Assembly: GCA_035625755.1 (NCBI GenBank)
Contig: DASPOZ010000101.1
Location: 1 to 38,942, forward strand
Length of the DNA: 38,942 nt
Reading direction: 5' to 3'
Source: Candidatus Sulfotelmatobacter sp.
GTDB taxonomy: Bacteria > Methylomirabilota > Methylomirabilia > Methylomirabilales > DASPOZ01
Shown here: in pieces, positions 7,976 through 19,494 of the stretch
Position numbering within the stretch: position 1 is the first letter of the stretch
How the letters are laid out: each line of letters starts with the position of its first letter
Notes under the pieces: model-generated
What the model was told of the DNA's origin: nothing
What the model saw: only the letters and a program-made list of their open reading frames with translations
Databases searched by the model: none
Position numbers and translations under genes: made by a program

Positions 7976-8281
7976 CTACAATCCCGTCTCGCTCCGGCGC
8001 GGCCGCAGGGCCCGGGCCTTCTGACGGCGCAGGCGGCGGGCCGCCTCCCGGACCTTCCGCCGCCGTCGCTCACCGGGCTTCTCATACCGGCTCTTCCGCG
8101 TAAAATCGCGGAGGATGCCATCCCGCATCACCAGGCGCTTGAACGCGCGCAGCGCGCTCTCCACGCCCCGTTCGTCCACGGCCACCTCGAGGGCGCGCCC
8201 CCGGGGACCCCCCGACCCGTGGGGGCGATCCCCCGACCCGTGGGGACGATCCCCTGAGCCCGCGCGGAGCGGCTCGGCCAT
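7976..8281 (-). CDS. rpsU: 30S ribosomal protein S21 with N-terminal repeat extension
   Basis: Core VESALRAFKRLVMRDGILRDF..YEKPGERRRRK. ATG 8281 preceded by GGGAAGGGGAGGGAAGGC. About 25 extra N-terminal residues include the GDRPHGS tandem repeat. Confidence 0.85.
   Translation of the reverse strand: MAEPLRAGSGDRPHGSGDRPHGSGGPRGRALEVAVDERGVESALRAFKRLVMRDGILRDFTRKSRYEKPGERRRRKVREAARRLRRQKARALRPRRSETGL
8209..8250 (-). repeat. Two in-frame 21-nt tandem repeats (with a partial third) inside the rpsU 5' end
   Basis: cccccgacccgtgggggcgat / cccccgacccgtggggacgat on the plus strand, encoding GDRPHGS twice. Confidence 0.9.
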
Positions 8282-8400: not shown

Positions 8401-8429
8401 AGTGTAGAGGGTTTCTCCTCGCCTGTCAA
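8401..8429 (-). promoter_or_regulatory. Sigma70-like promoter for rpsU (TTGACA-17-TACACT)
   Basis: Hexamers and the 17-nt spacer read directly from the minus strand. The -35 hexamer contains the stop codon (8426-8428) of the upstream moaD-like ORF. Confidence 0.5.
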
Positions 8430-8818
8430 TGGCCGGGCCGGAATCCGGCAGCAACCCCTCCAGCCGGCCCCCGGGCCACGGCGGGGAGCCGGCCGGCCGC
8501 GCCAGCCCCGCCAGCGCTGGCCGGGACGCCACCGCCCTTGCCTGCACCTCCCGCAATGGCGGGAACGATGCTCACCTGGTCCCCCGCCTTCAGCGGCGTC
8601 TGGGCCCCTTGCAGGAACCGGATGTCCTCCTCGTTGACGTAGATGTTGATGAAGCGGCGGAGCTGGCCATGATCGTCACAGAGACGGGCGCGCAGCCCCG
8701 TGTACTGGCCCTCCAGCGCCTCGATCAACTCCGCCACGGATGCAGCGGAGGCCTTCACCTCACCCTGCCCCCCGGTGAGGCCCCGCAGCGGCGTCGGGAT
8801 CCGCACGGTCACGCTCAT
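8426..8818 (-). CDS. MoaD/ThiS/CysO-family sulfur-carrier (Ubl) protein with a 39-aa extension after the Gly-Gly
   Basis: ATG 8818 with AGGGAGGAAAAG upstream. A 91-aa beta-grasp-like domain ends in VPAIAGG (GG codons 8551-8546). The frame continues as [39 protein letters not shown]. Confidence 0.8.
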
Positions 8819-8874
8819 CTTTTCCTCCCTAGTCCAGGGTCCCGAGTCCAAAGTCCCGAGTCGCGGGCGCGGCA

Positions 8875-10125
8875 TCAACGGGCGGCGGCCAGGACGCCGG
8901 CGGCGGCCAGCGCGCCGTCGAACGACTTGAGGGTGGGCTTGATCTGCAGGGGGGCCGGCAGCGCATCCACCACGGCCTCCTGGGTCTTCAGCCCGTGCCC
9001 CGTGATGCACACGACGAGGCTCTCGTCCCGGGGGATGCGCCCCTGCGCGATGAGGCGCATGGCCGCGGCCAGCGTCACCCCGCCGGCCGTCTCGGCGTAG
9101 ATCCCCTCGGTGGCGGCCAGCAGCTTCATGGCCTCCACGATCTCGGCGTCACTGGCGTGCTCGCCCCAGCCTCCGCTGTCCTTCACCACCTTGTAGGCGT
9201 AGTAGCCGTCGGCCGGGTTGCCGATGGCCAGCGACTTGGCGATGGTCCGGGGCCGCACGGGCCGGATGGTCTCCGAGCCTTCCTTGACCGAATTCACGAT
9301 GGGGCCGCACCCCTCCGCCTGGGCGACGTACATCCGGGTGGGCACGTCCGCGATCAGTTCCAGGGTGCGGAGCTCCTGCAGCCCCTTCCAGATCTTGGTG
9401 ATCAGCGACCCGCCGGCGGCGGGCACCACGATATGCTGCGGGGCGCGCCAGCCGAGCTGCTCGGCGATCTCGTAGCCGAAGGTCTTGGACCCCTCGGCGT
9501 AGTAGGGGCGGATGTTGATGTTCACGAAGGCCCAGCCGTACTTGTCCGCCACCTCGCTGCAGAGCCGATTCACCTCGTCGTAGTTGCCTTCCACCGCCAC
9601 CACGGAAGGGTTGTAGATGGACGTCCCCAGTACCTTGCCCTGCTCCAGGTCCGCCGGGATGAAGACGAAGCTCTTTATCCCGGCCTCGGCGGCGTGGGCC
9701 GCCACGGAGTTCGCCAGGTTGCCGGTGGAGGCGCAGGCCACCACCTGAAATCCCATCTCCAGGGCCCGGGTCACCGCCACGGCCACCACGCGGTCCTTGA
9801 AGGAGAGGGTCGGATGATTGACCGTGTCGTTCTTGAGGTAGAGTTCCCGCACGCCCAGGGCACGGGCCAGGTTTCGGGCCCGGATCAGGGGGGTGAAGCC
9901 GCATGCCCGGCCCACCGCCGCCTCGCCCTCGATGGGCAGCAGGGGGCGATAGCGCCAGATGCTGGGTGGCCCCGCCTCGACGGATCGGCGCGAGACCAGG
10001 CGCCGCAGGGCCTCGTAATCGTAGGCCACCTCCAGCGGCCCGAAGCAGAACTCGCAGACGTGGAGCGCTTTGGCCGGGTACGGCCGCCCACACTCGCGGC
10101 ACTTCAACCCCTTGATCGTTCCCAT
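8875..10125 (-). CDS. Threonine-synthase-family PLP enzyme (ThrC-like; predicted homocysteine-forming MetM-like role)
   Basis: N-terminal zinc ribbon CRECG...CEFC. PLP-lysine motif TLSFKDR. ATG 10125 (alternative ATG 10143). Lies in the SAM-riboswitch operon. Confidence 0.85.
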
Positions 10126-10187
10126 CCTGGATCCTACTCCCATCCCGCGGCCCCCGGCGAGGGGGGCCAGCGGCCTCGCCCCGGGGA

Positions 10188-10421
10188 TTATCCCCGGAGC
10201 TCCTCCACCCGGATCCCCAGCCCCGAGAGGAACGCGATGCCGCGCGCCACCTCGGCCGGATCGCCCTTGAGTTTCACCGTAACCTCGCCCGAGGCCTCGG
10301 TCACCCGGGCCTTGCGGATGTTAGGGACGATCTCGAATTCCTTGCAGAGGCGGTACAGCACCGGCTCCGTGACCAGGGAAGACGGGTAGGTCAGCTTCAC
10401 CGTGCGCGTGACTGCAGCCAT
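10188..10421 (-). CDS. NIL-domain protein (77 aa)
   Basis: ATG 10421 with GGGAGG 7 nt upstream. VKLTYPSSLVTEPVLYRLCKEFEIVPNIRKARV resembles the NIL domain of the MetN C-terminus. The tracked start at 10460 lies inside the riboswitch terminator and is rejected. Confidence 0.75.
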   Translation of the reverse strand: MAAVTRTVKLTYPSSLVTEPVLYRLCKEFEIVPNIRKARVTEASGEVTVKLKGDPAEVARGIAFLSGLGIRVEELRG

Positions 10422-10441
10422 GTGCCGCCTCCCGGGACCAT

Positions 10442-10482
10442 AAAAAAAACCCCTCCTCATCCATAGGCAATGAGAAGGGGTT
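10442..10482 (-). terminator. Riboswitch expression-platform terminator
   Basis: Minus strand reads CCCCTTCTCAT-TGCCTATGG-ATGAGGAGGGG followed by TTTTTTTT. Confidence 0.85.
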
Positions 10483-10500
10483 GCATTGACCCTTATCTTG

Positions 10501-10632
10501 CCTCATCTCTCATCCCGCCGGTACAGCACTACGAAGCGGGATGTAGGAGTTGGCACCGGACCCCCGCCATGCTGGGCGGGGCGGTTGCCGTGGCGTCGTC
10601 GGGCCAGTCCCTCAGCCACTCTGGATGAGTTT
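10501..10632 (-). promoter_or_regulatory. SAM-I (S-box) riboswitch aptamer
   Basis: Minus strand reads CTCATCCAGAGTGGCTGAGGGACTGGCCCGACGACGCCACGGCAACC...GGTGCCAACTCC...GGGATGAGAGATGAG. The P1 strands and the conserved GAGGGA / GGCCC / GCAACC / GGTGCCAA blocks are all present. Confidence 0.9.
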
Positions 10633-10638
10633 CGCGTA

Positions 10639-10667
10639 TTTATAGGTGATGCGTCCCGCCCTGTCAA
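10639..10667 (-). promoter_or_regulatory. Sigma70 promoter TTGACA-17-TATAAA driving the riboswitch operon
   Basis: Near-consensus hexamers with an exact 17-nt spacer. The predicted transcription start lies at the riboswitch P1. Confidence 0.75.
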
Positions 10668-10718: not shown

Positions 10719-10958
10719 CTATTCCACGATGTCCTGCTCGATGGGCGCGACCTTGATCCCCTTCTCCTCCAGCCAGCGAACGCCGCGGTCCAGGGCCTCG
10801 TCGTCGCCTTCCAGTTGGAGCATCATCCAGCCGACGCTTTCCGCCATATCCGCCTGGCGGATATTGAACACCACGTCGAAGTCCCGGCAGAGCTGCCACA
10901 TGATGGGCTCGTCCGCCAGGGTCCCGGGAAACGTCAGGTGCACGCGCCGCCTGGCCAT
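10719..10958 (-). CDS. NIL-domain protein (79 aa), paralog outside the riboswitch
   Basis: ATG 10958 (MARRRVHLTFPGTLADEPIMWQLCRDFDVVFNIRQADM...). Same fold signature as 10188-10421. Confidence 0.7.
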   Translation of the reverse strand: MARRRVHLTFPGTLADEPIMWQLCRDFDVVFNIRQADMAESVGWMMLQLEGDDEALDRGVRWLEEKGIKVAPIEQDIVE

Positions 10959-10967
10959 ATCGCCTGT

Positions 10968-10996
10968 ATTATACGGGTCATTGCCCGGTCCGTAAA
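10968..10996 (-). promoter_or_regulatory. Possible promoter TTTACG-17-TATAAT just upstream of the first NIL gene
   Basis: The -10 hexamer is perfect and the -35 is weak. The -10 ends only about 9 nt before the ATG, which implies a very short leader. Confidence 0.35.
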
Positions 10997-13054: not shown

Positions 13055-13183
13055 CAGGGCATTGAAGAACTCTCGCATACCCGGGCTGCTCAAAAAGGTG
13101 CAGATGCAAGGCGCCGCGCGGATTCCGCAATCCGCATTCCGCATTCCGCAATGGAGAGGTGGGCCCTTTCCAGCAGCCTGCTA
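13055..13183 (+). repeat. Palindromic repeat, copy 2 (variant core)
   Basis: The arms are conserved (CCCGGGCTGCTCAAAAAGGTGCAGATGCAAGG ... GGGCCCTTTCCAGCAGCCTG-CTA). The GC-palindromic core is replaced by ATTCCGC-type short tandem repeats at 13121-13150. Confidence 0.8.
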
Positions 13184-14995
13184 CGACGCGCATTCCCCGG
13201 GGCCGGTGTGCACGCCGAAGGCCTCGGTGCCGCCCCAGTCGAGGTAGGCATCCGGCGCCTGGGCGTGCGCCGGGAGCTCGGTCAGATCCCTGACCGCCTC
13301 CCGGATCCTGGCCAATCCGAGGCGATCCACGAACGCCTCGAACGTTTCCCCGCCCCGCCGCTCCGCCCGGTAGAGGTCCAGCAGGCGGCCCACTAGGGCC
13401 GGGGCGTTCTTCGCCGGTACCTTCAGCGCGGGGCGCGCGTACCGCGTCCCCTCCAGACTGAGGGATGCGCCCAGGAAGACCTGGTAGGTCGGCACCTGCT
13501 TCCCGTCGAACACCTTCGACCCGCCGGAGAAGCCGATGCCGGCGATGTGATGGTGGCCGCAGGAGTTCGGGCAGCCCGAGATCTTGATCCGGATCCCCGC
13601 CTCGTCGGCCACATAGGCGTGGCCGTTCCGGCAAATGTCGCCGATGGCCGCCGCCAGGCCGCGCGACGAGGTGATCCCGAGCTGGCAGGTATCGGCGCCG
13701 GGGCAGGCGGTGACGTCCGCCAGGCGGTCGGCCGAGGGCGCGGCCAGGCCCGCCCCCTTGAGCAGGCGATACACCGGCGGCAGCTTGGCGCCGGGGATCC
13801 AGCGCAGGAGGATGTTCTGCTGGTTCGTCGTCCGGAGCCACCCGTCACCGAACTGGCGGGCGAGGAAGGCAAGGACCCGGAGTTGCGGGCCCGTCACGTC
13901 GCCCAGAACCAGGCGCGCGTTGACCATGAAATAGCCCCGCTGCTTCTGCGGCCGCACGTTCGTGGCCCACCATCGACCGGATTCGGGGTCGCCGTTCGGC
14001 ACGGCGGCCAGGTCCGCCGGCGACGGAGCGCGCCGCGACGCCTCCGGCGGGACATCGATGGACGGGATCCTCCCGGCCAGCACCCCGCGCAGGCCTTCGC
14101 GCTCCCCCAGGACGAGGGCGCGGAACGCCTCCATCCCGAGCTTCCGGACGACGAACTTCAGGCGGGCCAGATTGCGGTTGTCCCGATTGCCGAGCCGATC
14201 GAACACGCGCACGATGGCCGCGATGGTGACCAGCAAGTCCTCGGCCGGCGTGAAGTCCTCCAGGGGCTGCGCCACCTGGGGCGATGGGCCGAGACCGCCG
14301 CCGACATAGAGGCGGAACCCCCGCAGCCCTTCCGCGCCTTGGTGGCGCAGCGCCGCCACCGCGCCGATATCCTGGATGGGCGCGAGCCCGCAGAGGTCCC
14401 GGCACCCCGAGAAGCTGATCTTGAATTTCCGGGGCAGGTTCTGGTTCATCGGATTGCGCAGGAGGAAGCGGGCCGTGGCCTCCGCGTAGGGCGTAACGTC
14501 GAAGGGCTCGTCGGGCGCCACGCCGGCGTGGGGGCAGGCCACCACGTTGCGGACGGTGTTCCCGCAGGCCTCGCGCGTGGTGAGGCCCACCTCGGCCAGG
14601 CGCGTGAGCGTCGGCGTCAGTTCCTCCGGCTTCACGAAGTGGAACTGGATGTTCTGGCGCGTCGTGACGTGGCCCACCCCCCGCGGCGCCGCCTCGGCCA
14701 GCTCGGCCAGGCGCTCGACCTGCTTCGCCGTGAGGCCGCCCCAGGGGATCTTCACCCGCACCATGTGCACCCCCTCCTGCCGCTGGCCATAGACGCCATG
14801 CTGCAGGCGGAAGCGCTTGAACTCGTCCGGCGTGATCTCGCCGCGCCAGAAGCGATGAACGAACCGGTCGAAGGTATCGATCTCGCCGGCGTCCGCCCAG
14901 GATTCCGGCTCGTGCACGGCCTGCCCGGGGAGTTCCTCGGCGTCCGGGATGTGAAGGTGGGGTCGCCTCGTCTCGGTCGTCACCTCGTCGTTCAT
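13181..14995 (-). CDS. sir: Ferredoxin-dependent sulfite reductase (siroheme/[4Fe-4S] hemoprotein)
   Basis: ATG 14995 with GGAGGG upstream. Duplicated nitrite/sulfite-reductase half-domains. Cys cluster TACPGADTC ... SGCPNSCGHH. Confidence 0.9.
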   Translation of the reverse strand: MNDEVTTETRRPHLHIPDAEELPGQAVHEPESWADAGEIDTFDRFVHRFWRGEITPDEFKRFRLQHGVYGQRQEGVHMVRVKIPWGGLTAKQVERLAELAEAAPRGVGHVTTRQNIQFHFVKPEELTPTLTRLAEVGLTTREACGNTVRNVVACPHAGVAPDEPFDVTPYAEATARFLLRNPMNQNLPRKFKISFSGCRDLCGLAPIQDIGAVAALRHQGAEGLRGFRLYVGGGLGPSPQVAQPLEDFTPAEDLLVTIAAIVRVFDRLGNRDNRNLARLKFVVRKLGMEAFRALVLGEREGLRGVLAGRIPSIDVPPEASRRAPSPADLAAVPNGDPESGRWWATNVRPQKQRGYFMVNARLVLGDVTGPQLRVLAFLARQFGDGWLRTTNQQNILLRWIPGAKLPPVYRLLKGAGLAAPSADRLADVTACPGADTCQLGITSSRGLAAAIGDICRNGHAYVADEAGIRIKISGCPNSCGHHHIAGIGFSGGSKVFDGKQVPTYQVFLGASLSLEGTRYARPALKVPAKNAPALVGRLLDLYRAERRGGETFEAFVDRLGLARIREAVRDLTELPAHAQAPDAYLDWGGTEAFGVHTGPGECAS

Positions 14996-15007
14996 GGTCC
15001 CTCCAAG

Positions 15008-15040
15008 AAAAAAGGCCAACCCGCTCTCTGCGGATTGGCC
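15008..15040 (-). promoter_or_regulatory. Terminator-like hairpin immediately upstream of the sir RBS (possible attenuator)
   Basis: Minus strand reads GGCCAATCCGC-AGAGA-GCGGGTTGGCC followed by TTTTTT, then CTTGGAGGGACCATG. Confidence 0.55.
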
Positions 15041-15596: not shown

Positions 15597-15751
15597 CAGG
15601 CTGCTGAAAAACCTTCTCTTGCCCAGGCTGCTCAAAAAGGTCCAGATGCAAGGCGGCGCGCGATGCGCCGAGTGAGGCGTACTTCTGGTACGCCGCAGCG
15701 AATGCGCGAGCGCGCCAACGCCGCAGATGGGCCTTTTTCAGCAGCCTGCTA
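15597..15751 (+). repeat. Palindromic repeat, copy 3 (short form)
   Basis: CAGGCTGCTGAAAAACC-TTCTCTTGCC-CAGGCTGCTCAAAAAGGTCCAGATGCAAGGCGGCGCGCGATGCG...GCGCGAGCGCGCCAACGCCGCAGATGGGCCTTTTTCAGCAGCCTG-CTA. Confidence 0.9.
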
Positions 15752-16597
15752 CGGCTTTTCCACGGGCACGCCCACCAGGCTCCCGTACTCGGTCCAGGAT
15801 CCGTCGTAGTTGCGGACCCTGGGATAGCCCAGGAGCTCCTTCAGGGCGAACCATGTGAGCGAGGAGCGCTCACCGATCCGGCAGTAGGCCACCACCTCCT
15901 TGTCGGGCGTGACCCCCTTGCCCGCGTAGAGGCTCTTGAGCTCGTCCGCCGACTTGAAGGTGCCGTCGGGGCGGCAGTTCTCGCCCCAGGGGATGTTCGC
16001 CGCGCCGGGCACGTGGCCGCCCCGCTGCGCCCCCTCCTGGGGCAGGTTCTCGGGGGCCAGCAATTCGCCGCTGAACTCGCGGGGCGAGCGCACATCCACC
16101 AAGGCGCGGTTCCGCCTGAAGGCCGTCTCCACCACCAGGTCCCGGGCGGCGCGGACGGAAGGATCGGGGTCCTTGGCGCTGTAGCGCACGGGGGCGATCT
16201 TGGTGGCCTCCTTGGTCAGCGCGCGGCCCTCGTCGATCCATTTCTTCCGGCCGCCGTTCATGATCTGCGCGTCGGAGTGGCCGTAATGCTTCAGCAGCCA
16301 GTAGGCGTACGTGGCGAACCAGTTATTGTTATCCCCGTAGAGGATGACCTTGGTATTGGTGCCCACCCCCGCCTGGCCCAGGAGCTGCTCGATCTTGGCC
16401 TTGCTGGCGATATCGCGCACGGGGTGCTCCTCCAGGTCCCGGAACCAGTTCAAGGCTACCGCCCCGGGGATGTGGCCCTGCTCGAAGGCGGCGGTATCCA
16501 CGGAGACCTCGATGACGCGAAGGTTCGGGTCCTTCAGATGGTCCGCCACCCATGCCGTCTCCACGAGCACCTGAGGGTTCGCGTACGCCGTCGCCAT
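15749..16597 (-). CDS. Thiosulfate/3-mercaptopyruvate sulfurtransferase (tandem rhodanese)
   Basis: ATG 16597 with AAGGGAGGGGG upstream. Two rhodanese domains. Active-site loop CRIGERSS. Confidence 0.9.
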   Translation of the reverse strand: MATAYANPQVLVETAWVADHLKDPNLRVIEVSVDTAAFEQGHIPGAVALNWFRDLEEHPVRDIASKAKIEQLLGQAGVGTNTKVILYGDNNNWFATYAYWLLKHYGHSDAQIMNGGRKKWIDEGRALTKEATKIAPVRYSAKDPDPSVRAARDLVVETAFRRNRALVDVRSPREFSGELLAPENLPQEGAQRGGHVPGAANIPWGENCRPDGTFKSADELKSLYAGKGVTPDKEVVAYCRIGERSSLTWFALKELLGYPRVRNYDGSWTEYGSLVGVPVEKP

Positions 16598-16641
16598 GGC
16601 CCCCTCCCTTCGTCCGGTCGGCTCGGACCGGACCACCGAAT

Positions 16642-16830
16642 CTACGCCAGTCGCACCTTCTCCGTGGTGTCGATCTGCACCACCCGCGAGTCCTGGATGA
16701 TGATCTGCACTTGCCCGTGACGGACGGACCGGATGGCCTCCACGATGCGCCGCAGCACCTCGCGGTCCTCGGCCCCCTCGCCGGGCGCCGGGCCCGGGGC
16801 ACCGAGATTCGCGGGCCTCTGGAGTTTCAT
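16642..16830 (-). CDS. YezD/DUF2292-family small protein
   Basis: ATG 16830 with GGGGGAG upstream. HGQVQIIIQDSRVVQIDTTEKVRL matches the family signature as recalled. Confidence 0.7.
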   Translation of the reverse strand: MKLQRPANLGAPGPAPGEGAEDREVLRRIVEAIRSVRHGQVQIIIQDSRVVQIDTTEKVRLA

Positions 16831-16855
16831 GGGCTCCCCCCCGGCCCCCGCGGGC

Positions 16856-17344
16856 TCAGGATCCGTCCGCCCCCGCGATGGGGGCCTCCAGGAATTCCCC
16901 GGCCGCCTCATCCCAGCGGAACGCCCTCACCTCGCGGACCGCCGCCGCGTCCAGGGCCACGATCAGGTAGGCCGTGTCGGGGTAGACCGGCTCGCCGTCG
17001 AACAGGGCGCGGTCCCTGTCCTCCTGGGAGAAGTAGGCTGCGTGGTCCGGGTGCGAGTGGTAGAACGCGGCCACGGCCCACCCGTCCCGGTCCACCTCGT
17101 TGAGCACGTCCAGCAGCTCCTTGCCGTCCATGTAGTAGGCGATGCGGGCGACCCGGGGATACCGCTCCGGGTCCCGCGCGTGCAGCTGGTCCTGGATGTT
17201 GCGCACGCGGCGCACCGCCTCGGCGCCGTCCCGCCGCAGGATCAGGCCGCAGCACTCGTCCGGATAGGTCTCGCGGGCGTGCGCCGCCACGGCCTCCAGC
17301 GTGGAGGTCCGGAATCGCACCGCCGTCTGCGCGCCTGTGGTCAT
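16856..17344 (-). CDS. JAMM/MPN+ metallopeptidase (Mec+/CysO-hydrolase-like)
   Basis: Catalytic Glu in PDECCG. JAMM motif HSHPDHAAYFSQED (H-x-H-x7-S-x2-D). An alternative GTG start at 17362 overlaps the cysM stop. Confidence 0.85.
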   Translation of the reverse strand: MTTGAQTAVRFRTSTLEAVAAHARETYPDECCGLILRRDGAEAVRRVRNIQDQLHARDPERYPRVARIAYYMDGKELLDVLNEVDRDGWAVAAFYHSHPDHAAYFSQEDRDRALFDGEPVYPDTAYLIVALDAAAVREVRAFRWDEAAGEFLEAPIAGADGS

Positions 17345-17355
17345 GTCCCGTCCCG

Positions 17356-18288
17356 CTACCACCAGATGTGACTGGCCACGTCCTCCGGGATGTCCGCGGT
17401 GTCCTTCTGCCAGACGCCGAGGCTCACGTACTTCCAGCCGCCGTCCGCCAGCAGGACCACGATGTTGCCCCGATCCATGCGGCGGGCCACCCGCAGGGCG
17501 CAGTGCAAGGCCGCGCCGGACGAGACGCCGGCGAAGATCCCCTCCCGGCGCATCAGATCCTTGGTGGCGGCGAACGCGCAGCGTGAGTCCACGAGGATCT
17601 TGCCGTCCAGGAGGCCCAGGTCCAGGATGGGCGGAATGAACCCCTCCTCCAGGCTCCGAAGCCCCTGCACCGCGTCCCCCGGGTGCGGCTCCGCGGCGAT
17701 GACCTTCACCCGCGGGTTATGCTCCTTGAGCCGACGGCCCACGCCCATGAGCGTGCCGCCGGTCCCCAGCCCTGCGATGAAGGCGTCTACCTCCGGCATA
17801 TCCCGCACGATCTCGGCCCCGGTGGTCTCGTAGTGGGCCCGGGGGTTGGCCGGGTTGCCATACTGGTACAGCAGGCAGAAGCGGGGGTCCTCCGCCATCT
17901 TCTGGGCCAGCTCGATGGAGCCGTTGGTCCCCCGGGCCGGGTCCGAGAAAACGATCTCGGCCCCATAGAGGTCCAAGAGCTGCCGCCGTTCCACCGTGAC
18001 GTTCTCGGGCACCACCACCGTGATCCGGTAGCCTCTCCGCCGGGCGATCATGGCCAGGGCGATCCCCGTGTTGCCGCTGGTGGGCTCCAGGATGGTCTTC
18101 TCCCGCGTGAGCTCGCCCGACCGCTCGGCGGCCTCGATCATGGACCTGGCGATGCGGTCCTTGAGGCTGCCCGTGGGGTTGTTCCCCTCGAGCTTGGCGA
18201 AGAGACGCACCCCGGGCTTGGGGCTGAACCGCGGCAGCTCCACCAGCGGGGTGTTCCCGACGGCCTCCAGGATGTCCCGAGCGATCAT
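17356..18288 (-). CDS. cysM: Cysteine synthase B-type PLP enzyme (CysM-like)
   Basis: NPTGSLKDR PLP-lysine motif and TSGNTG. GAGGGAACGGC precedes ATG 18288. Confidence 0.9.
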   Translation of the reverse strand: MIARDILEAVGNTPLVELPRFSPKPGVRLFAKLEGNNPTGSLKDRIARSMIEAAERSGELTREKTILEPTSGNTGIALAMIARRRGYRITVVVPENVTVERRQLLDLYGAEIVFSDPARGTNGSIELAQKMAEDPRFCLLYQYGNPANPRAHYETTGAEIVRDMPEVDAFIAGLGTGGTLMGVGRRLKEHNPRVKVIAAEPHPGDAVQGLRSLEEGFIPPILDLGLLDGKILVDSRCAFAATKDLMRREGIFAGVSSGAALHCALRVARRMDRGNIVVLLADGGWKYVSLGVWQKDTADIPEDVASHIWW

Positions 18289-18396: not shown

Positions 18397-19494
18397 CTAC
18401 CCCTCCGGGACCCCGGCCGCCGCCGGGATGCCACAGAACTGGTTGTAGTCGATCAGGTCCGTGATGGTGGGCCGGTCGCCGCAGACCGGACAGTTCGGAT
18501 CTCGGCGGAGCTTTACCTGGCGGAACTCCATCCCCAGGGCATCGAAGAACAGCAGCCGGCCGGCCAGGGATTCCCCTAGGCCCAGGAGGAGTTTGATGGT
18601 CTCGATCCCCTGGATGGAGGCGATGATGCCGCACAGCACGCCCAGCACGCCGGCCTCCGCGCAGCTGGGTACCAGGCCGGCCGGCGGCGGCGCCGGGTAG
18701 AGGCACCGATAGCAGCCCAGCCCCGGCTTGAACACGGTGACCTGTCCCTCGAACTTGAAGATGCTGCCGTCCACCAGGGGCTTCTGCAGGAACACCGCGG
18801 CATCGTTTGCCAGGTAGCGGGTGGGGAAGTTGTCCGATCCGTTCACGATCACGTCGTACTCGGCGAAGATCTGCTTCGCGTTCGCCGAGGACAGCTGCGT
18901 GGCGTAGGGCACCACCTTCACGTCCGGGTTCATGTCCGCAATGGTGTCGATGGCCGAATCCACCTTGGGGCGCCCCACGTCGTGGGTGTGGTGGAGGATC
19001 TGGCGCTGGAGGTTGCTGAGGTCCACCTTGTCGAAGTCCACGATGCCCAGGGTGCCCACGCCGGCCGCCGCCAGGTAGAGGGCCGCCGGAGACCCCAGGC
19101 CCCCCGCGCCGATGATCAGCACCCGGCTGCCCAGCAGCCTCTTCTGGCCGCGCCCGCCCACCTCCGGCAGGATGATGTGGCGGCTATAGCGCCGGATCTG
19201 CTCCTCGGTCATGGCGCCCGCGCCGCCGGCCAGGGCGGGGATCAGGGCCACCTCGTCGCCGTCCCGCACGGTGGCCTCGAGGCCGCCCAACTCCTCCACG
19301 GCCAGGTTGTTCACGTAGACGTTCACGTGGTGCAGGATCTCGCCGCGTCCGTCCAGCACGCGGCCGCGCAGGCCGGGGTAGCGCCCCTCCAGTTCGCGCA
19401 GGACGCCGGCCACCGTGGCCTGCCCCGCCTCCACCCGGGCCTGATTGTCCGTGAATTGGCGGTAGGGCGTCGGAATGTACACCGTGATACTCAT
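18397..19494 (-). CDS. Translational fusion of a MoaD/CysO-like Ubl domain (aa 1-91, ...ALAGG) with a MoeB/ThiF-type E1 adenylyltransferase (aa 95-365)
   Basis: The reading frame across the junction is GCC GGC GGC GCG GGC GCC ATG ACC, with no stop. E1 part: MTEEQIRRYSRHIIL, GAGGLGSP Rossmann motif, CYRC and CPVC zinc pairs. No C-terminal rhodanese domain. Confidence 0.85.
   Translation of the reverse strand: MSITVYIPTPYRQFTDNQARVEAGQATVAGVLRELEGRYPGLRGRVLDGRGEILHHVNVYVNNLAVEELGGLEATVRDGDEVALIPALAGGAGAMTEEQIRRYSRHIILPEVGGRGQKRLLGSRVLIIGAGGLGSPAALYLAAAGVGTLGIVDFDKVDLSNLQRQILHHTHDVGRPKVDSAIDTIADMNPDVKVVPYATQLSSANAKQIFAEYDVIVNGSDNFPTRYLANDAAVFLQKPLVDGSIFKFEGQVTVFKPGLGCYRCLYPAPPPAGLVPSCAEAGVLGVLCGIIASIQGIETIKLLLGLGESLAGRLLFFDALGMEFRQVKLRRDPNCPVCGDRPTITDLIDYNQFCGIPAAAGVPEG

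Follow-up and report, generated by a model that had tools for sequence, protein, structure and literature searches.

The window analysed here is a stretch of 38,942 nucleotides (nt) from Candidatus Sulfotelmatobacter sp. (contig DASPOZ010000101.1). It has a G+C content of 70%, and its nearest relatives are metagenomic NC10 / Methylomirabilota-Rokubacteria sequences. Between positions 8426 and 10958 it carries a promoter, an S-adenosylmethionine (SAM) riboswitch and a terminator, together with the genes for two small NIL-domain proteins, for a pyridoxal phosphate (PLP) enzyme of the threonine synthase (ThrC) family and for a ubiquitin-like sulfur carrier. The locus is probably an operon, repressed by SAM, with which an NC10 / Methylomirabilota-Rokubacteria member makes homocysteine by the MetM/MetO route. 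All of its features, from promoter to carrier, are on the minus strand. The riboswitch, promoter, terminator and genes are identified as follows, in the direction of transcription, with protein lengths in amino acids (aa).

10719 to 10958, minus strand: NIL2, a standalone NIL protein of 79 aa ending QDIVE, just upstream of the promoter and outside the control of the switch (Pfam NIL, 70.9 bits).
10639 to 10667, minus strand: sigma-70-type promoter TTGACA-17-TATAAA, found by direct reading and exact pattern search.
10500 to 10631, minus strand: SAM-I (S-box) riboswitch aptamer, found with the Rfam RF00162 covariance model.
10440 to 10482, minus strand: intrinsic terminator (expression platform), with a 14-pair stem at 10482-10448 followed by a T-run.
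10188 to 10421, minus strand: NIL1, a standalone NIL protein of 77 aa ending EELRG, the first gene controlled by the riboswitch (Pfam NIL, 53.6 bits).
8875 to 10143, minus strand: MetM-type PLP enzyme of the ThrC family with an N-terminal Cys4 zinc ribbon, 422 aa (PALP, 242 bits).
8546 to 8818, minus strand: MetO-type sulfur carrier, a ThiS/MoaD beta-grasp domain of residues 1-91 ending AIAGG (ThiS, 64.5 bits; SAMP1, 55 bits).
8426 to 8545, minus strand: Gly/Ala-rich tail of 39 aa with the stop codon, an open frame continuing past the Gly-Gly (full gene 8426-8818).

The promoter is the sole match to TTGACA-17-TATAAA in the window even when one mismatch is allowed, and none of 100 shuffled sequences contains a match. 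The site is found by the exact pattern search and missed by a generic promoter scanner, because the scanner demands a T at the last position of the -10 box. About 7 nt separate the end of the -10 box from the first base of the riboswitch. The RF00162 model aligns to the aptamer over its whole length (model positions 1-108 of 108) with a score of 79.2 bits, the gathering score being 44.4, and E = 3.4e-17. Across 24 MetM-linked copies of the riboswitch, 93.6% of the cells of the SAM-I fold are paired, against 40-51% in slid controls, and 22 of the 35 pairs show compensatory changes on both sides; the alignment behind these values was fitted to the Rfam model, and such fitting favours the result. 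The terminator begins 18 nt past the aptamer and ends about 20 nt ahead of the NIL1 start codon, and its hairpin dominates the minimum-free-energy fold of the leader. As read from the sequence, the switch is predicted to be of the OFF type, terminating transcription when SAM is bound. An earlier reading of the sequence alone (hereafter the sequence-only reading) had placed a TTGACA-17-TATAAA promoter, an S-box aptamer and a terminator with a T-run in front of NIL1 and had suggested a search with RF00162. All three elements are where it put them, and the search gave a significant match to the entire model.

The locus was compared with 80 species-level loci from many phyla, chosen as relatives of the enzyme with 57-73% identity to it. 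Three close NC10 loci and an actinomycete locus from Nonomuraea (L084) were added to this sample. A SAM-I riboswitch is found upstream of MetM in 19 of the 80 loci, in several phyla. A protein search of a plasmid collection returned only haloarchaeal thrC genes and a single actinomycete record, from Nonomuraea, which is a chromosome filed as a plasmid.

The combination of a SAM riboswitch, a ThrC-like enzyme and a ubiquitin-like carrier is that of a published pathway and is not new. MetM of the Streptomyces pathway is a ThrC homologue and MetO is a sulfur carrier of the ThiS/MoaD type (10.1101/2024.10.14.618325, GapMind 2026 preprint). In Streptomyces, MetO is matured by the JAMM protease Mec and activated by MoeZ, and MetM is often misannotated as threonine synthase (10.1101/2024.10.14.618325). 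PMC12172450 describes a SAM riboswitch upstream of metM in S. albulus and a neighbouring metO of the sulfur-carrier family, and a 2026 bioRxiv preprint (10.64898/2026.09.15.751699) is in agreement on the MetM/MetO pathway. The definition of MetM and MetO used here is taken from secondary citations of Hasebe et al. 2024 (AEM 90:e01247-24). The sequence-only reading had cited this precedent with MetM as the ThrC homologue. It had, however, taken MetO, the carrier, for the NIL protein, and its claim that the novelty lay in a carrier added to a MetM/NIL pair falls for that reason: the carrier and the ThrC-like enzyme are the known pair, and the NIL proteins are the extra. What sets this locus apart from the published system is the presence of two standalone NIL proteins flanking the riboswitch and of a carrier with a 39-aa tail.

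The likeness to S. albulus MetM/MetO consists of the ThrC-homologous PLP enzyme, the carrier directly downstream of it and the SAM riboswitch upstream; the JAMM protease (Mec) and MoeZ-type activating enzyme (E1) that this system needs have counterparts encoded in a gene cluster of the window. The differences are that one NIL gene separates the riboswitch from metM and another is found just upstream, that the carrier has a 39-aa tail whereas the actinomycete carrier has a free Gly-Gly, and that the E1 lacks the fused rhodanese domain and is fused to another carrier instead. In the Nonomuraea locus, which served as a stand-in for the Streptomyces system, a SAM-I riboswitch (68.7 bits) is followed by MetM and then by MetO ending AVAGG, and no NIL gene occurs within 6 kilobases (kb).

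The open frame of the enzyme has 422 aa. The true start is probably the ATG at 10125, giving 416 aa, because the homologues measure 416 aa. The zinc ribbon is formed by Cys15, Cys18, Cys30 and Cys33; in an alignment of 15 sequences C15, C30 and C33 are invariant and C18 is conserved in at least 90%. The SFKDR motif with the Schiff-base lysine is present, and this lysine, K116, is invariant. A ThrC-family tree, also suggested by the sequence-only reading, places the window enzyme in the MetM clade and apart from canonical ThrC: in the neighbour-joining tree it groups with riboswitch-linked and MetO-linked homologues, the Nonomuraea protein nests inside the clade, and three canonical ThrC paralogues are on a separate long branch. 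For this clade assignment the Nonomuraea protein stood in for MetM of S. albulus. With Nonomuraea MetM the window enzyme shares 50.7% identity, with canonical ThrC 35-37%, and in a comparison with Aquifex ThrC it scores 201 bits, against 508 bits for the canonical ThrC paralogue of a Nitrospirota locus (L013).

At 31 positions the MetM clade has a residue, conserved to 90% or more, that is not the one found in canonical ThrC, and the window enzyme has the MetM state. The changes from ThrC to MetM include SFKDRGM to SFKDRVV, STGNTS to STGNLA, PYR to PYY, GNAGN to AAGGSL and GNPxSW to GNPADG, as well as an insertion of eight residues. The window enzyme fails to group with canonical ThrC, the motifs STGNTS, NPYR and GNAGN all being altered. 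Several of the altered positions are, we assume, ligands of the substrate phosphate in the Thermus ThrC structures. ThrC keeps this phosphate to steer water to C-beta, and loss of the phosphate ligands would fit a switch to gamma-replacement.

These features bear on the possibility that threonine synthesis, alone or combined with deaminase activity, is the true function of the ThrC-like enzyme, with the neighbouring carrier being incidental or otherwise used. Such a function is very improbable. It is the one suggested by public annotation, in which every homologue is named threonine synthase, and by the TIGR00260 thrC model, which matches the window enzyme with 287.5 bits and thus passes the equivalog cutoff of 167. 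It would also agree with assays in vitro of a cyanobacterial (Microcystis) family member, which showed threonine deaminase and weak threonine synthase activity; according to PMC12172450, these assays were run without thiocarboxylated carrier. The match to TIGR00260 is, however, the misannotation expected for MetM, and the 31 distinguishing positions are unlike those of canonical ThrC. An OFF-type SAM switch has the wrong logic for the supply of threonine; a SAM-responsive OFF switch suits methionine synthesis, and the earlier argument that SAM control assigns the enzyme to methionine rather than to threonine therefore stands. A carrier gene is found downstream of MetM in 73 of the 80 loci, the gap being 56 nt in the window. 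Furthermore, in Nitrospirota a canonical ThrC gene directly follows MetM-MetO-NIL (L013, 5862-6956; L015, 2138-3268; L017, 1936-3018), so that both O-phosphohomoserine-consuming enzymes coexist there side by side.

Fusions are also found in the wider family. An E1-MetM-like fusion protein exists (P0229, a closer fragment), and more distant ThrC-like proteins with 36-42% identity (P0250, P0251, P0262, P0227 and P0230) carry either a LeuA allosteric domain or a PadR DNA-binding domain as a fusion. Judging by these fusions, the ThrC-like family appears to have gained regulatory or carrier-handling domains repeatedly.

In the window carrier, Gly90-Gly91 are followed by 39 in-frame residues, and there is no free C-terminal Gly-Gly in the protein as encoded. 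The carrier would thus need proteolytic trimming, because the tail caps the Gly-Gly. The description of a bona fide Gly-Gly carrier in the sequence-only reading holds for the ThiS/MoaD family membership and for Gly90-Gly91, and does not hold for the position of the Gly-Gly, which is not terminal. The identity of the sulfur donor, which that reading had left open, is largely answered: the predicted donor is the carrier itself after removal of the tail. MetO has a free Gly-Gly in cyanobacteria and in the Nonomuraea locus. Elsewhere it is capped by one to seven residues, by a NIL domain, by an E1 or by a long tail. The carrier of the closest relative (L085) likewise has a tail of 39 aa, of different sequence; that of another close relative is 107 aa long, and in two further loci (L001 and L003) the carrier ends in GG followed by a single R. 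An assembly error as the origin of the tail is ruled out, since the closest relatives have tails too and many other taxa have short caps. The tail appears to be real and poorly constrained, because the tails of the closest relatives vary in both length and sequence.

The solved proteins nearest to the carrier half of a modelled MetO-NIL fusion (P0315) are CysO of M. tuberculosis and of Amycolatopsis, with which it shares 48% identity. The modelled fusion homologue superimposes on CysO with template modelling (TM) scores of 0.84-0.88, normalised to the target. Another solved structure, the structural-genomics entry PDB 1v8c from Thermus thermophilus ("MoaD related protein", 168 aa), consists of a MoaD-like domain, an internal Gly-Gly and a C-terminal domain, the start of which weakly resembles the first NIL strand (FPPWLLE versus FPPKLIK). 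By this resemblance, 1v8c may show the structure of a carrier capped by a fused domain.

Two further observations concern the carrier gene. At 8401-8429 on the minus strand, a promoter-like sequence, TTGACA-17-TACACT, is directed towards the gene for ribosomal protein S21 (7976-8281); the end of the poorly conserved MetO tail, with its stop codon, overlaps this sequence. In the closest relative the public annotation lacks the MetO gene (L085, 7312-7704), the gene caller having chosen an open reading frame (ORF) of 71 aa on the opposite strand instead. Carrier genes of the MetO type may be under-called in high-G+C metagenome assemblies.

The proteins with which a capped carrier could be processed and charged with sulfur are encoded further upstream, on the same strand.

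18397 to 19494, minus strand: second carrier fused to a ThiF/MoeB-type E1 in one ORF, with the junction ...ALAGG-AGAM... (ThiS, 52 bits; ThiF, 278 bits).
17356 to 18288, minus strand: CysM-like PLP enzyme, assigned to the synthesis of cysteine from a thiocarboxylate (cysKM subfamily model, 347 bits).
16856 to 17362, minus strand: JAMM/Mec-type metalloprotease, the candidate tail-removing enzyme (Prok-JAB, 69.7 bits; HSHPDHAAYFSQED motif present).
16642 to 16911, minus strand: small DUF2292 / OscA-like ("sulfur starvation response") protein between the JAMM and rhodanese genes, found in the same place in a close relative.
15749 to 16636, minus strand: two-domain rhodanese that may supply the E1 with persulfide (Rhodanese, 119.7 bits, two matched stretches).
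13181 to 15019, minus strand: NirA/Sir-type sulfite reductase, a source of sulfide (NIR_SIR and NIR_SIR_ferr twice each; NirA model, 272 bits).

A CymR-like Rrf2 regulator, CysK and a YeiH-family membrane protein are also encoded in this cluster, on the same strand. The start of the JAMM gene overlaps the end of the CysM-like gene, and the CysM-JAMM-E1 synteny is seen in related loci. With JAMM, E1, rhodanese and sulfite reductase, the cluster holds all the parts for maturation, adenylation and sulfuration of a carrier within about 11 kb.

The carrier half of the E1 fusion is 45% identical to the window MetO. The same carrier-E1 fusion occurs in two relatives (L001 and L085), and a third locus (L034) has an E1 fused to the carrier downstream of MetM. 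Judging from the encoded sequence, such a carrier would require cleavage to be released from the enzyme that activates it. In close relatives (L085, 1771-2214, and the P0001 contig) an extra carrier stands free ahead of CysM; here too a long tail succeeds the Gly-Gly, and the complete proteins measure 147 and 126 aa. The window is without this extra carrier and has only the E1-fused carrier at that place.

The window also resembles CysO-CysM-Mec-MoeZ of Mycobacterium tuberculosis, since it carries a CysM/JAMM/E1 set. That system shares with the MetM/MetO locus a thiocarboxylated beta-grasp carrier, a fold-type-II PLP enzyme, an O-phospho amino acid, a JAMM protease and an E1. It differs in its product (cysteine), its substrate (O-phosphoserine) and its enzyme, which is of the CysK/CysM family, and it is without a SAM riboswitch. 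Homocysteine is made from a protein thiocarboxylate by HcyS-HcyD-HcyF-MetY of Wolinella succinogenes, in which a capped Gly-Gly carrier is trimmed by a JAMM protease. There the enzyme, MetY, is a fold-type-I O-acetylhomoserine sulfhydrylase, and the substrate is acetylated and not phosphorylated.

Taken together, the parts suggest the following scheme. Transcription would start at the TTGACA-17-TATAAA promoter. With ample SAM in the cell, the aptamer would fold and the downstream terminator would halt transcription; with little SAM, read-through would allow NIL1, MetM and MetO to be expressed. The JAMM protease, encoded about 8 kb upstream, would cut the 39-aa tail from MetO, and the ThiF-type E1 would adenylate the uncovered Gly-Gly. 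Sulfur supplied via the neighbouring sulfite reductase and rhodanese would then convert MetO into a thiocarboxylate. Finally, MetM would use its PLP to eliminate phosphate from O-phosphohomoserine and would add the sulfur of the MetO thiocarboxylate at C-gamma, yielding homocysteine. We infer the chemistry of MetM at this locus from homology with the Streptomyces system, and the processing and activation of the carrier from gene content. Besides the TIGR00260 score and the Microcystis assays considered above, the distance of the JAMM and E1 genes from MetO (8-10 kb) and their position outside riboswitch control weigh against this scheme. The prediction in the sequence-only reading of a SAM-repressed ThrC-like enzyme that makes homocysteine with a ubiquitin-like carrier is nevertheless well supported by homology and context.

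The two NIL proteins are 40% identical to each other, and each consists of a NIL domain alone, with no ferredoxin domain. As the sequence-only reading had noted, neither ends in Gly-Gly, the termini being ...EELRG in NIL1 and ...QDIVE in NIL2. The NIL1 ribosome-binding site, GGGAGG, is situated 6 nt ahead of the ATG at 10421. An AlphaFold2 model of NIL1 (predicted local distance difference test score 90.5) has a beta-alpha-beta-beta-alpha-beta fold, and its best matches among solved structures are the C2 domains of E. coli MetN (3tui, 3tuz and 3dhw), with TM scores of 0.85-0.90 and root-mean-square deviations of 1.2-1.9 Å. A sequence search with NIL1 against solved structures gave no match, and the link to MetN is made via NIL2 and the predicted fold only. 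NIL2 aligns to residues 270-338 of E. coli MetN, including the equivalent of Asn295. MetN binds L-methionine across its C2 dimer by means of a hydrogen bond from N295, and the mutation N295A abolishes binding (PMC6233128). The Asn295 equivalent and the strand that follows it (consensus NIR.A.V) are kept in at least 80% of the MetM-linked NIL proteins. The window-type NILs resemble the MetN C2 domain in belonging to the same Pfam family (PF09383), in their fold, and in keeping the methionine-binding Asn and the dimer-interface strand. They differ from it in being free-standing, at 77-79 aa, or fused to the carrier in other taxa, in having no ATPase or transporter attached, and in missing a four-residue loop of MetN.

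The gene order NIL2, riboswitch, NIL1, MetM, MetO is kept in the NC10 relatives. A promoter-like sequence, TTTACG-17-TATAAT, at 10968-10996 on the minus strand ends 10 nt ahead of the NIL2 start codon; judging from this spacing, NIL2 may have its own nearly leaderless, SAM-independent transcript. Between NIL1 and MetM, at 10144-10187 on the minus strand, is a G+C-rich inverted repeat without a T-run (CCCCGGGGCGAGG...CCTCGCCGGGGG). This hairpin appears to be specific to the lineage of the window, because the two genes abut in a relative (L003).

A NIL gene adjoins MetM/MetO in 34 of the 80 loci, comprising none of the 26 cyanobacterial loci and 34 of the 54 others. Its usual position is after MetO, or between MetM and MetO. 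Conserved modules include CysM-E1-MetM-MetO-NIL-E1-JAMM in Nitrospiraceae and MetM-MetO:NIL-E1-JAMM-CysM in Syntrophaceae. In seven of the 80 loci NIL is fused to the C-terminus of MetO after AIAGG, with a linker of 3-20 residues following the Gly-Gly. A search with one such fusion gave 3,044 database matches; the best 120 clusters listed among them all span the complete fusion and have both Pfam domains. The C-terminal motif PIExDhhE of NIL2 is also found in NIL proteins that adjoin MetO or are fused to it in other phyla. The presence of NIL is associated with three other properties of the loci, as listed here; the counts ignore shared ancestry.

Carrier capped or fused: 25 of 34 loci with NIL and 5 of 37 without it (Fisher p 3e-7, or 0.017 once cyanobacteria are left out).
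JAMM gene nearby: 14 of 34 loci with NIL and 0 of 46 without it (Fisher p 9e-7).
E1 gene nearby: 16 of 34 loci with NIL and 3 of 46 without it (Fisher p 3e-5).

Two possible roles of NIL were set aside. A role as a persulfide carrier was rejected, because no cysteine is conserved in the MetM-linked NIL proteins. A role as a substitute for the riboswitch is unsupported: among the 80 loci, NIL and SAM-I occur together in nine, whereas 25 have NIL without SAM-I and 10 have SAM-I without NIL.

The conserved methionine-binding residues are consistent with the NIL proteins being MetN-C2-like dimers that sense methionine or a close relative of it and exert feedback on MetM or on the maturation or activation of the carrier. 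This is the most likely role of NIL, if one of somewhat less than even likelihood. More doubtful is the proposal that NIL is a third component of the pathway, a methionine or homocysteine sensor that would control the carrier at the step of uncapping by JAMM, of activation by E1 or of hand-over to MetM. The lack of respect for shared ancestry in the association counts detracts from both proposals, as does the fact that the NIL proteins have no conserved cysteine and no known partner, their role being one that we only infer. Moreover, MetM/MetO loci without NIL are found in cyanobacteria and actinomycetes, that is, NIL is dispensable there; to judge by these loci, NIL is not needed for the chemistry of MetM and MetO. 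A literature search of incomplete coverage found no paper tying NIL to MetM/MetO or to ThiS/MoaD carriers, which is weak evidence for novelty.

In the main alternative, which is rather unlikely, NIL is a structural or adaptor subunit without small-molecule regulation. It would dock or protect MetO or its capped precursor, for instance by presenting it to JAMM or E1 or by passing it on to MetM. Such a role would account for the recurrence of MetO-NIL fusions with their short linkers, for the model of the fusion, which has two folded domains (predicted TM score 0.75), and for the tendency of NIL to occur where the carrier is capped and where JAMM and E1 genes are close by. It would also agree with the finding that the NIL/ferredoxin protein of the DUF39 pathway to homocysteine is genetically required and not merely regulatory (PMC5764234). 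However, an adaptor leaves the conserved methionine-binding residues (Asn295 and the NIxxAxV strand) unexplained, and the actinomycete and cyanobacterial pathway runs without NIL.

The DUF39 (COG1900) pathway of methanogens and Desulfovibrio resembles the present locus in that a NIL domain is tied to homocysteine synthesis. It differs in starting from aspartate semialdehyde, in having NIL fused to a 4Fe-4S ferredoxin and in being without a ThrC-like enzyme or a ubiquitin-like carrier. No match to DUF39 was found among the roughly 35 window proteins that were scanned. The molecular role of the NIL/ferredoxin protein in that pathway is unexplained (PMC5764234; PMC12068725).

A further alternative is that the NIL genes are unrelated to MetM/MetO, being leftovers or methionine-binding proteins with a task of their own, such as the regulation of transport, that share methionine-related regulation. 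The best-known NIL domain is that of the MetN transporter ATPase, NIL2 is outside riboswitch control, and NIL is absent from 46 of the 80 loci. Yet there are no MetNI-type methionine ATP-binding cassette transporter genes beside the NIL genes of the window, and the position of NIL among MetM, MetO and E1 is kept in at least seven phyla, in addition to the fusion proteins. This alternative is very improbable.

If NIL is indeed a sensor, the MetO-NIL fusions would be self-regulated carrier precursors, and feedback at the protein level would be added on top of the riboswitch. The same function could explain the NIL domain in the homocysteine pathway of methanogens and Desulfovibrio. The recurrence of NIL beside the carrier or fused to it points to a possible regulatory or accessory layer in ubiquitin-like sulfur transfer, and with the free-standing NIL proteins the function of NIL outside the MetN transporter could be studied in a small system.

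The whole enzyme family is publicly labelled "threonine synthase", whereas the member described here is a predicted SAM-regulated homocysteine synthase. MetM-type enzymes are widespread, occurring in Methylomirabilota, Nitrospirota, Planctomycetota, Chloroflexota, Verrucomicrobiota and Cyanobacteria. If the annotation is left uncorrected, methionine auxotrophy will be miscalled in metabolic reconstructions of these mostly uncultured groups.

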